Source: a virus (lineage: Duplodnaviria; Heunggongvirae; Uroviricota; Caudoviricetes). From it: DNA of 64,000 nt. The notes beneath the pieces are model-generated. The model searched no databases, was not told where the DNA came from, and saw nothing but the letters and a program-made list of their open reading frames with translations. How positions within the stretch are numbered: position 1 is the stretch's first letter; each line of letters opens with the position of its first letter. Made by a program: the position numbers and the translations under genes. Location of the stretch: positions 31,599-95,598 of the IMG/VR virus record IMGVR_UViG_2713896905_000004; one strand, given 5' to 3'. This document shows, in pieces, positions 47,555 through 49,010 of this stretch.

Positions 47555-47775
47555 CCACAGCATAGATCCAATAAACAGATCCTAAAGAGAACCTAGGAAG
47601 ATCCAAAGAAGATCCCGGATCGCTGTAAGCCGCGCCATTTCTGGCCTGAAATGGGATCAACATTGACTATACGCGATTTTATGTTGACTGTGCACGATTT
47701 ATTGTTGACTGCACGCGATTTATTGTTGACTATACGCGACAGAAACATTGACTGTACGCGATTTTAGAGCCTGAC
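47555..47775. promoter_or_regulatory. plasmid replication origin (DnaA box, GATC cluster, 5 iterons)
   Basis: ttatccaca DnaA box; five GATC within about 60 bp; five ttgactRtRcgcga iterons. Confidence 0.7.
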
Positions 47776-47841
47776 TATTCACAGTTGTTGATAACTGCAA
47801 TCCAGATGACGCCAGGCCGCGCCACATATGGAGAAACCACG

Positions 47842-48726
47842 ATGCCGGAAGAAAATAAAGGCTTCCTTAGCGTTGAAGAAGTTGCTGGAAATACAGGAGA
47901 AATCCACAGCCTGAAACCCAATAACAATAGCACTATACAACCCATCGCTTTGTTGCGCTTAGGTGTGTTTGTGCCAACCTTAAAATCTACCAATGTGGCA
48001 CTACGTCGCGGATCGTCAGTTACTACAAACACAACGAACGCAACCGAAGAACTATCAAGCCTCAAAATTGTTGAGCAGGAAGGCTATGAGGGAATTGAAA
48101 TTCATGGTCCACGCCTGGATATGGATACTGATTTTAAGGTGTGGGTGGGCATAACCTCCGCGTTGTTTGACTACGCACCTGATGATGACGGTATAATCAC
48201 CCTGCCATTCTCCGAGTTTGCCGATCGATGCGGCTATCCACGTAAGCGCCTTTCAAAGGCGTTCCGTAAAAGTATTGATGATTCTCTGACACGCATTCAG
48301 CAGACAGTTGTCAAATTCCGCTTCCCGGCGGCAAAAGGTCATCTCAATAACATTAACGTCAACTTGTTGGCATATAGCAGCCTGAATACCGAGCTTGATG
48401 TTATCGAGATCCAGCCGCAGAAACAGCTATCTGAACTTTACTATGTTGACTATAAGCGAATCCTGAAGCTGAAGATGCTGGATAAGCTCGGGCGCAAAGA
48501 GACGGCCAAGGTACTGTATACATTCTTTGAGGCTCTACCCGCCAACCCGGCACCTGTCAGCATTGAGCGCCTTAGAGCAAGGCTTAATCTCAAATCATCC
48601 GTTAGCGTGCAAAATAGCGTTATCAGAAAAGCCATGAAAGATTTAGAAGCTATTGAATATCTTAAATTTTCAGAGATAAAAAACGGCAGGAAAATCGGCT
48701 TCCAGATCCATAAGCGCAATCCATAA
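47842..48726 (+). CDS. repA: iteron-binding replication initiator RepA
   Basis: GGAG ribosome-binding site; flanked by iterons; conserved blocks shared with P1 RepA but overall diverged. Confidence 0.75.
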   Translation: MPEENKGFLSVEEVAGNTGEIHSLKPNNNSTIQPIALLRLGVFVPTLKSTNVALRRGSSVTTNTTNATEELSSLKIVEQEGYEGIEIHGPRLDMDTDFKVWVGITSALFDYAPDDDGIITLPFSEFADRCGYPRKRLSKAFRKSIDDSLTRIQQTVVKFRFPAAKGHLNNINVNLLAYSSLNTELDVIEIQPQKQLSELYYVDYKRILKLKMLDKLGRKETAKVLYTFFEALPANPAPVSIERLRARLNLKSSVSVQNSVIRKAMKDLEAIEYLKFSEIKNGRKIGFQIHKRNP

Positions 48727-49010
48727 TATTGACTATATGCGATAGCGAGAAGTTGACTATAGGCGACATTCATTGACGCTGGTGGATTTTTGCTGGAGTC
48801 AATATTCTGCAAGTCGCTATTGAGATGGCTTTTAGGGTCATTTCATCGCGTATAGTCAACGTTTCTCCCGACAATATCTTACATAGTCGATCTTTGGTGG
48901 AGTTAAATCGACTACAGTCAACTTTTGACTGTAGTCACATCGCGCATAGTCAACTATTCACATTAACCTTCGCGCATAGTCAACATTTGCGCGGTTCTCA
49001 TCAAGCAGTG
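48727..49010. repeat. downstream iteron array (incA-like)
   Basis: About 8-9 copies of the same iteron core in both orientations. Confidence 0.7.

Follow-up and report, generated by a model that had tools for sequence, protein, structure and literature searches.

A p0111-type replicon beside P1-type partition genes in a P1-like phage-plasmid

Introduction

P1-like phage-plasmids have been described with two replicon types, IncY or p0111 (PMC9603915, PMC11165635, PMC5241659). The sequence AP010962 is the p0111 reference for the PlasmidFinder type (PMC11165635). In Escherichia phage JL22, 'repA' (p0111) and gp57', a gene of unknown function, stand in for repA (IncY) (PMC9603915), and the RepA proteins of P1 and Salmonella phage SJ46 were reported to be 42% identical (PMC5241659). 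Approximately 17 switches of replicon type have been inferred along one Salmonella phage-plasmid tree (PMC11165635). The phage-plasmid pSvP1 was reported with "2 orfs inserted between repA and parA" (PMC6906374). P1-like phage-plasmids spread ESBL, mcr, and toxin genes, and replicon type therefore serves typing and surveillance.

Genes of the T5orf172 family also bear on the locus described here. They have been proposed to be homing endonucleases at genetic-exchange boundaries in phages (PMC10448857), and Odn, a T5orf172 nuclease of ICP1, cleaves the replication origin of a rival at its iterons (PMC8263062).

The DNA analyzed is a stretch of 64,000 nucleotides from a virus of the Caudoviricetes (IMG/VR record IMGVR_UViG_2713896905_000004, positions 31,599 to 95,598), referred to below as the window; all coordinates are those of the window unless stated otherwise.

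Results

The window very probably represents a P1-like phage-plasmid with a plasmid-maintenance block in which a p0111 replicon takes the place of P1's IncY, with the P1-type parABS unchanged alongside. The P1-like genes found elsewhere in the window were c1, pacAB, dmt, ban, tail and head genes, phd/doc, and c4/immI. The replicon is located between upfA (47115-47507) and parA (49997-51193). This region was 99.5% identical to those of SJ46 and JL22 and 97.4% identical to that of RCS47, and the whole cassette was 99.1% identical over approximately 2,249 bp to pO111_3 of E. coli O111:H- 11128 (AP010962/NC_013370.1). Near-identity to the pO111_3 reference places the replicon in the p0111 type in the PlasmidFinder sense, as does its residence at the P1 repA position in a P1-like backbone, where upfA, parA, parB, and gene 23 were 96-100% identical to P1. 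In pO111_3, SJ46, RCS47, and JL22, all of the p0111 type, the cassette has the same position between upfA and parA as in the window, with no substantial difference, and the RepA of SJ46 was 100% identical to that of the window. Among 5,426 complete E. coli genomes, the p0111 replicon was present in 415 and IncY in 361.

The gene products of the window were compared directly with those of the P1 reference, NC_005856 (locus L001). Identities were 41% for RepA, 99.7% for ParA, 100% for ParB, 96% for UpfA, 96% for Mlp, 99% for PpfA, 92% for UpfB, 100% for UpfC, and 100% for gp23. The genes flanking the replaced cassette were thus 92-100% identical to P1, in contrast to only 41% for RepA. The features of the flanks were as follows.

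47115-47507, + strand: upfA, the last P1-backbone gene left of the cassette (amino acid identity to P1 UpfA as above)
49895-49996, + strand: right junction, with 100% identity to P1 from 49895, including the P1-annotated par promoter and ParA operator
49914-49919 and 49937-49942, + strand: -35 and -10 of the par promoter, at the positions annotated in P1
49997-51193, + strand: parA, P1 type, with Pfam domains HTH_54 and AAA_31
51210-52211, + strand: parB, P1 type, with Pfam domain PF08775
52216-52298, + strand: parS centromere, P1 type, with box B TCGCCA and box A ATTTCAC/ATTTCAA, all boxes identical to P1

On the left side, DNA identity to P1 was 90-100% up to about 47519, just past the stop codon of upfA; beyond this point it was 70-78% through the left half of the origin, and similarity was gone at the iterons. 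The left junction is located downstream of upfA and upstream of the DnaA box of the origin. The right junction, at 49895, is 19 bp upstream of the P1-annotated -35 of the par promoter. Sequence unlike that of P1 extends from about 47520 to 49894 (approximately 2.4 kb), in place of approximately 1.6 kb of P1. This block comprises a complete origin arranged as in P1 oriR, the repA gene, an array of iterons downstream of repA, and a T5orf172/GIY-YIG gene. An initial annotation, made from the sequence without database searches, had suggested a replicon swap and had given the range 47555-49010, which covers the origin, repA, and the control iterons; the differing block proved wider and includes the T5orf172 gene at 49019-49828. 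The swap itself is supported by the sequence comparison, in which a 2.4-kb block with 41% identity in RepA and unrelated iterons lies, with sharp junctions at about 47520 and 49895, between flanks 95-100% identical to P1.

The P1-like character of ParA and parS, which the initial annotation had reported, was confirmed on alignment, and ParB was identical as well. Compared to P1, parS had five substitutions, all of them between the motifs, in the central stretch that holds the P1-annotated IHF site. ParA, ParB, and the box A and box B motifs of parS together place the system with P1-type ParABS (incB). The ParA and ParB of SJ46 were 100% and 99.7% identical, respectively, to those of the window and are therefore also of P1 type. 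A statement relayed in PMC5241659, that the Par proteins of RCS47 and SJ46 are P7-like, is at odds with the SJ46 identities measured here.

The replication gene of the exchanged block was as follows.

47842-48726, + strand: repA, a predicted iteron-binding initiator of 294 amino acids, with the ATG preceded by GGAG

The RepA of the window is identical to WP_001113737. Its alignment with P1 RepA was full length (41% over 291 residues), with conserved blocks between diverged stretches; the blocks include GPRLDMDTDFK.W.G and LYTF.E.LP.NP.P.S. In Pfam, the C-terminal part matched Rep3_C with 27.3 bits (cut-off 21.1), and the middle part scored 22.0 bits for Rep3_N, just under the cut-off of 22.4. 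PDB sequence searches with RepA gave no match, and the protein was placed only by fold search. An AlphaFold model built from 29 homologs had a pLDDT of 72, with the N-terminal 70 residues disordered, and its best Foldseek matches in the PDB were only iteron-binding initiators: RctB domains 2-3, RepE, pi, the WH1 domain of pPS10 RepA, and TrfA (E from 5e-7 to 1e-2; TM 0.61-0.64 to single WH1 domains). The Pfam scores and the predicted fold place RepA with the Rep_3-class initiators that have tandem winged-helix domains (WH1-WH2).

The closest characterized relatives by sequence were the RepFIB RepA of pO157 (47%) and P1 RepA. The pO157 protein, at 47% over 278 residues, is slightly nearer than P1 RepA, and repeats flank repA in that replicon also; however, the sequence of those repeats is different (TTACTGACTACAGCTTATAT in pO157, for example), the RepFIB RepA has a C-terminal extension, and the context is not that of a phage. 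The window replicon does not have the RepA and repeats of F, P307, or pO157 and does not belong to RepFIB. Some records label RepA of the window type as "RepFIB replication protein A", which is a family-level name only.

Closer relatives of RepA were found in two other phage-plasmid backbones. The first, L004, has an 85%-identical RepA among the tail genes of another E. coli phage-plasmid family of approximately 90 kb, with an unrelated backbone. The second, L006, is a much more diverged P1-like element (gp23 80%, ParB 67%, and PpfA 49% identical) with an 84%-identical RepA. Outside P1-like elements, the L004 family at 85% was followed by Proteus and Providencia plasmids at 53-54%. No donor plasmid outside phage-plasmids was found, the nearest RepA beyond P1-like and L004 records being at this 53-54% level.

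The origin, the iterons, and the sites around repA were as follows.

47520-47659, + strand: left half of the origin, with a perfect DnaA box, TTATCCACA, at 47551-47559 and a degenerate DnaA box just before it
47565, 47578, 47600, 47611, 47618, and 47655: GATC sites of the left half, within AGATCC-type repeats (five or six sites)
47660-47766, + strand: five direct iterons (incC equivalent), with cores at 47663, 47684, 47705, 47726, and 47748, spaced by 21, 21, 21, and 22 bp
47784-47792, - strand: degenerate inverted DnaA box, TGTTGATAA, between the iterons and repA, read from the sequence
48445-48461, + strand: iteron inside the repA frame, GTTGACTATAAGCGAAT, coding VDYKR
48727-48988: downstream iteron array (incA equivalent), with three copies in forward orientation, at 48729, 48753, and (degenerate) about 48773-48790, and four in inverted orientation, at 48846, 48908, 48940, and 48970

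The left half of the origin, with its DnaA box and GATC sites, is the counterpart of the half of P1 oriR that holds DnaA boxes and Dam methylation sites. It was visibly better conserved among the window, L004, and L006 than against P1 (alignment A2, judged by eye), which argues that it belongs to the incoming replicon module and not to the P1 backbone. At the position of the window's degenerate inverted DnaA box, L004 and L006 both hold a perfect TGTGGATAA.

The iteron pattern TTGACTRTRCGCGA, with up to 2 mismatches, was found in 12 copies between 47663 and 48983. A 13th match in the window was a stray at 37572. The chance expectation was 1.33 matches in the whole 64 kb, and the observed 13 were reached in none of 100 shuffles. 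The number and spacing of the origin iterons are those of P1 incC (P1 62773 to 62688), but their sequence is unrelated to the P1 iterons: the 19-mer consensus was AtGTTGACTaTAcGCGAtt in the window and gATGTGtGCTGGaGGGAaa in P1, with 9 of 18 positions in agreement in the best register. When up to 3 mismatches were allowed, the P1 iteron GATGTGTGCTGGAGGGAAA was absent from the whole 64-kb window, compared to 14 matches in the P1 locus. Tandem direct iterons in helical phase beside the rep gene, together with the DnaA box TTATCCACA at 47551, have the arrangement of Rep_3-class replicons.

The downstream array has the layout of P1 incA, with forward copies from the repA stop codon followed by inverted copies (3 + 6 in P1), and L004 and L006 share this conserved layout. 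One of the inverted copies, at 48908-48921, is palindromic with the sequence at 48926-48937. The iteron inside repA was the longest run shared unchanged by three repA genes whose three-way identity is only 63%. All 5 of its wobble bases were conserved compared to 27.6% gene-wide, which has a probability of approximately 0.0016 for a pre-specified five-codon run if wobble positions are taken as independent. This site is probably a functional RepA site, as judged from its conservation. A scan of the P1 locus gave no iteron inside P1 repA.

The IncY replicon of P1 and P7 (oriR-incC, repA, incA) occupies the same position and has the same parts: a DnaA box and five GATC sites are joined by five iterons spaced at 21-22 bp, repA comes next, and the iterons beyond it are first forward and then inverted. 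Its RepA is homologous to that of the window over the whole length. The IncY replicon differs in having 9 downstream iterons compared to 6-7 in the window, and in having neither the iteron inside repA nor the T5orf172 gene before parA that are present in the window. By these comparisons, the two replicons are distant homologs that share a layout. Neither the P1-type 19-bp iterons nor a RepA nearly identical to P1 RepA, by which IncY (P1/P7) is recognized, was present. The initial annotation had described a RepA that shares only conserved blocks with P1 RepA and an iteron core unlike that of P1, and had asked for alignment with P1. Both descriptions held when the alignments were made, and no high identity of RepA or the iterons to P1 was seen.

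The right part of the non-P1 block is occupied by the T5orf172 gene.

49019-49828, + strand: T5orf172/GIY-YIG-family nuclease gene, 269 amino acids, with Pfam PF10544 at 26.9 bits (cut-off 20) over residues 8-85; phrog_2876
49836-49860, + strand: terminator-like hairpin GCCCCTGAACGGGGC followed by TTTTTTG, after the T5orf172 gene

The T5orf172/GIY-YIG domain scored above the Pfam threshold. The predicted nuclease domain spans residues 5-105, and the C-terminal 165 residues had no relatives except in one ortholog. Among approximately 15 billion proteins, full-length relatives were limited to the protein's own cluster and P0124 (44% identical), the latter encoded between repA and parA of L006, the same place as in the window; 76 relatives were found for the N-terminal domain. 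Between the window protein and P0124, the nuclease domain was well conserved and the C-terminal 165 residues were not. No match to the protein was found in a PDB sequence search, PADLOC, or NCBIfam, and neither a RepA_N nor a zinc-finger DNA-binding domain was detected in it. An AlphaFold model made on a 3-sequence alignment had a pLDDT of 49, too poor for a fold search.

The gene lies wholly inside the non-P1 block. It was full length in 391 of the 404 plasmid records with the cassette, those 391 having the cassette whole, and a chimeric query over plasmid records placed it beside an IncY repA in none of 776. These counts bear out the suggestion of the initial annotation that the gene arrived with the replicon. 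In SJ46 the gene has a premature stop at codon 228, compared to the full 269-codon frame of the window. The L004 replicon agrees with that of the window in its origin, in the spacing of its iterons, in the intragenic iteron, and in the downstream array, and the T5orf172 gene is absent from it. The premature stop in SJ46 and the absence from L004 together indicate that the gene is not needed for replication. The same replicon layout in the L004 backbone also indicates that the replicon moves as a module between phage-plasmid families.

The protein resembles Odn of ICP1 and the T5orf172 homing endonucleases in having an N-terminal T5orf172 (GIY-YIG-like) domain and in being encoded beside replication iterons, where an exchanged module ends; it differs in its C-terminal domain, which is an orphan. 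Because Odn cuts a rival origin at iterons, BLASTP and profile-profile alignment were used to look for resemblance of the C-terminal domain to either RepA, and no similarity that would indicate an Odn-like chimera was found.

Discussion

The feature is a well-described p0111 replicon, common and ordinary; the swap is real and already known. Since the dichotomy of IncY and p0111 among P1-like phage-plasmids has been published, the swap is not new, and the finding adds no new biology because the window is a standard example of the p0111 type. Points of possible specialist interest are the exact junctions, the iteron within repA, the 85%-identical RepA in a second phage-plasmid family, and the strict linkage of the T5orf172 gene.

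On the model of P1 oriR and other iteron plasmids, the five iterons of the origin would be bound by monomers of RepA, which would act with host DnaA to open the GATC-rich DNA beside them. At the origin, bound RepA could also repress its own gene; for this step the argument is one of analogy, since a simple scan for a sigma-70-like repA promoter on the + strand within or after the iterons gave no candidate. The downstream iterons, and probably also the intragenic one, would titrate RepA and pair with the origin ("handcuffing"), which would keep the copy number low, again as in the analogous plasmids. The cassette at about 47520-49894 was very probably exchanged through homologous recombination between conserved flanking sequences, with one crossover past the end of upfA and the other ahead of the par promoter, and with the T5orf172 nuclease gene carried along as a fixed passenger.

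Other scenarios could lead to the same arrangement. RepA and the iterons could have evolved quickly from the P1 versions in place, with no exchange; the two replicons are, after all, homologous and share an architecture, and identity of approximately 74% persists in the left half of the origin. This scenario is scarcely credible, however, given an abrupt drop, within tens of bases on both sides, from 95-100% identity to undetectable similarity for the iterons and 41% for the RepA protein. The cassette moreover contains one additional gene and a 171-bp unrelated spacer, and another backbone carries an 85%-identical RepA together with an origin and iterons laid out in the same way. The direction of the exchange is less one-sided. 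The p0111-type replicon could have resided longer in the P1-like lineage, with the IncY of P1 and P7 as the incomer, in which case the window would show the ancestral state and the word swap would still be right. The diverged P1-like element L006, with its 84%-identical RepA and 44%-identical T5orf172 ortholog in the same position, points this way, and the divergence of that ortholog is in the range of the backbone genes, which suggests long residence. However, the two types occur at similar frequencies (361 genomes with IncY and 415 with p0111), and the 85%-identical RepA in the unrelated L004 backbone means that transfer could have occurred either way. We consider this reversed order a genuine possibility, but we do not favor it.

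A further scenario gives the T5orf172 gene an active part. As a homing-type or rival-directed endonuclease, its product could cut the IncY allele when two P1-like genomes meet, at or near the P1 incA-Ppar interval or the P1 origin, and repair would then copy the p0111 cassette in. Such a drive would account for frequent type switches (approximately 17 on one tree, PMC11165635). It would fit the place of the gene at the right edge of the exchanged block, where the stop codon at 49828 is 67 bp from the junction at 49895, and the strict linkage, with the whole cassette in 391 of 404 records and the gene beside an IncY repA in 0 of 776. The far better conservation of the predicted nuclease domain than of the remainder between the two orthologs, the homing proposals for T5orf172 genes (PMC10448857), and origin cleavage by Odn (PMC8263062) agree with it also. 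Nevertheless, the C-terminal domain is unlike either RepA, so that an Odn-like design is unsupported; SJ46, with the gene stopped at codon 228, is still a maintained phage-plasmid; the related L004 replicon is without the gene; and ordinary homologous recombination between co-infecting P1-like genomes, with flanks 95-100% identical, suffices for swaps. We therefore regard drive by a selfish nuclease as unlikely. The fuller claim, that the gene is no passenger but actively drives IncY replacement or rival exclusion, so that p0111 is a selfish "homing replicon cassette", is somewhat less likely again; if it were true, it would explain both the frequent type switches and the scarcity of genomes with both types.

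Passive exchange of the cassette, our preferred reading, has consequences for incompatibility. RepA and the iterons changed together, so the replicon should neither initiate from nor be throttled by P1 iterons. Because RepA and its sites diverged together, cross-recognition with P1 iterons is unlikely and another incA/incC incompatibility is expected; we infer that incompatibility at the level of replication control (the incA/incC equivalents) differs from that of IncY. Partition incompatibility (incB), on the other hand, should stay that of P1, as the P1-type ParB and parS are unchanged in the window.

Co-residence of the two types was assessed in the same 5,426 complete E. coli genomes, in which a chimeric query gave 774 as the union of genomes with either replicon. 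Only 2 genomes (415 + 361 - 774) therefore had both types, compared to 27.6 expected if the types were independent (hypergeometric P = 6.5e-11), and no single record carried both (777 = 415 + 362). With dual-type genomes so far below expectation, the swap alone does not give whole elements free co-existence. Mutual exclusion could plausibly stem from a shared P1-type par, which was seen for this window, and perhaps from phage immunity that the elements have in common, and strain population structure may contribute to the scarcity. The strong dearth of dual-type genomes, taken together with the T5orf172 linkage, provides a testable idea about competition between replicon types.

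Iterons of the p0111-type replicon

Comparison of three repA genes placed one iteron inside the reading frame:

48445-48461, intragenic iteron of repA

This iteron is a 17-nt run that was perfectly conserved across the three genes, diverged as they are, and all 5 of its wobble bases were conserved compared to a background of 27.6%. In contrast, P1 has no counterpart to this intragenic iteron. Two elements were located in the downstream array:

48773-48790, third forward iteron, degenerate, CATTGACGCTGGTGGATTTT (6929-6948 in L004, the related replicon on another E. coli phage-plasmid backbone; 5913-5933 in L006, a diverged P1-like element)
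48908-48937, near-perfect palindrome TCGACTACAGTCAA-CTT-TTGACTGTAGTC, in which an inverted iteron is paired with part of a forward one

The degenerate iteron was kept in 3 of 3 replicons (window, L004, and L006). In its 3' half, GCTGGTGGA, it is similar to the core of the P1 iteron, GCTGGAGGGA, and it may therefore be a remnant of shared ancestry. The palindrome could be bound by a RepA dimer.

Related replicons and database labels

The replicon within locus L004 (NCBI GCA_013513435.1, contig DABKFZ010000018, 37713-50597; second example, NZ_CP085065.1) encodes a RepA 85% identical to that of the window, and its origin and iterons are laid out in the same way. It is flanked by tail and baseplate genes and belongs to the backbone of a different, approximately 90-kb E. 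coli phage-plasmid family; no par locus or T5orf172 gene adjoins the replicon at the L004 locus. The replicon of NZ_CP148988.1, a plasmid closely related to the window, was typed as "IncHI1B" by MOB-suite (PLSDB typing), and RepA is named "RepFIB replication protein A" or "replication helicase" in several GenBank records. Such names mislead when given to a P1-like replicon of the p0111 type.

Par proteins and T5orf172 gene of SJ46

It has been relayed (PMC5241659) that the Par proteins of SJ46, a Salmonella phage with a p0111 replicon (KU760857), are P7-like. This was contradicted by their identity to those of the window (ParA, 100%; ParB, 99.7%), which makes them P1 type. In the T5orf172 gene of SJ46 (4324-5136 of locus L002, from KU760857), codon 228 is a premature stop, which accounts for the annotated length of 684 nt.

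C4 RNAs, variable region, addiction module, and tRNA genes

The following features were found around c1 and in immI:

10146-10997, c1
11030-12148, - strand, ant-like ORF between c1 and pacB
12421-12508, - strand, second C4 antisense RNA, between c1 and pacB
12533-12610, - strand, isrK RNA between c1 and pacB
62517-62602, canonical immI c4

The elements between c1 and pacB supplement the canonical immI c4. The stretch 11030-12708 (- strand) is missing from NZ_CP148988 except for a 336-nt match at 86%. Region 18376-26132 matches this otherwise close plasmid only in patches and is, therefore, a variable region of the phage-plasmid. Two further features lie on the - strand:

58520-58694, - strand, sok antitoxin RNA (Rfam, 89.7 bits), hok/sok-type system
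39602-41357, - strand, tRNA genes Met(cat), Thr(tgt), Tyr(gta), and Arg(tct)

At the place corresponding to the sok RNA, hokD is annotated in NZ_CP148988; the hok/sok-type addiction module comes on top of phd/doc, annotated in the same relative. The tRNA annotation of P1 lists Asn, Thr, and Ile2(cat), whereas Tyr and Arg replace Asn in the window.
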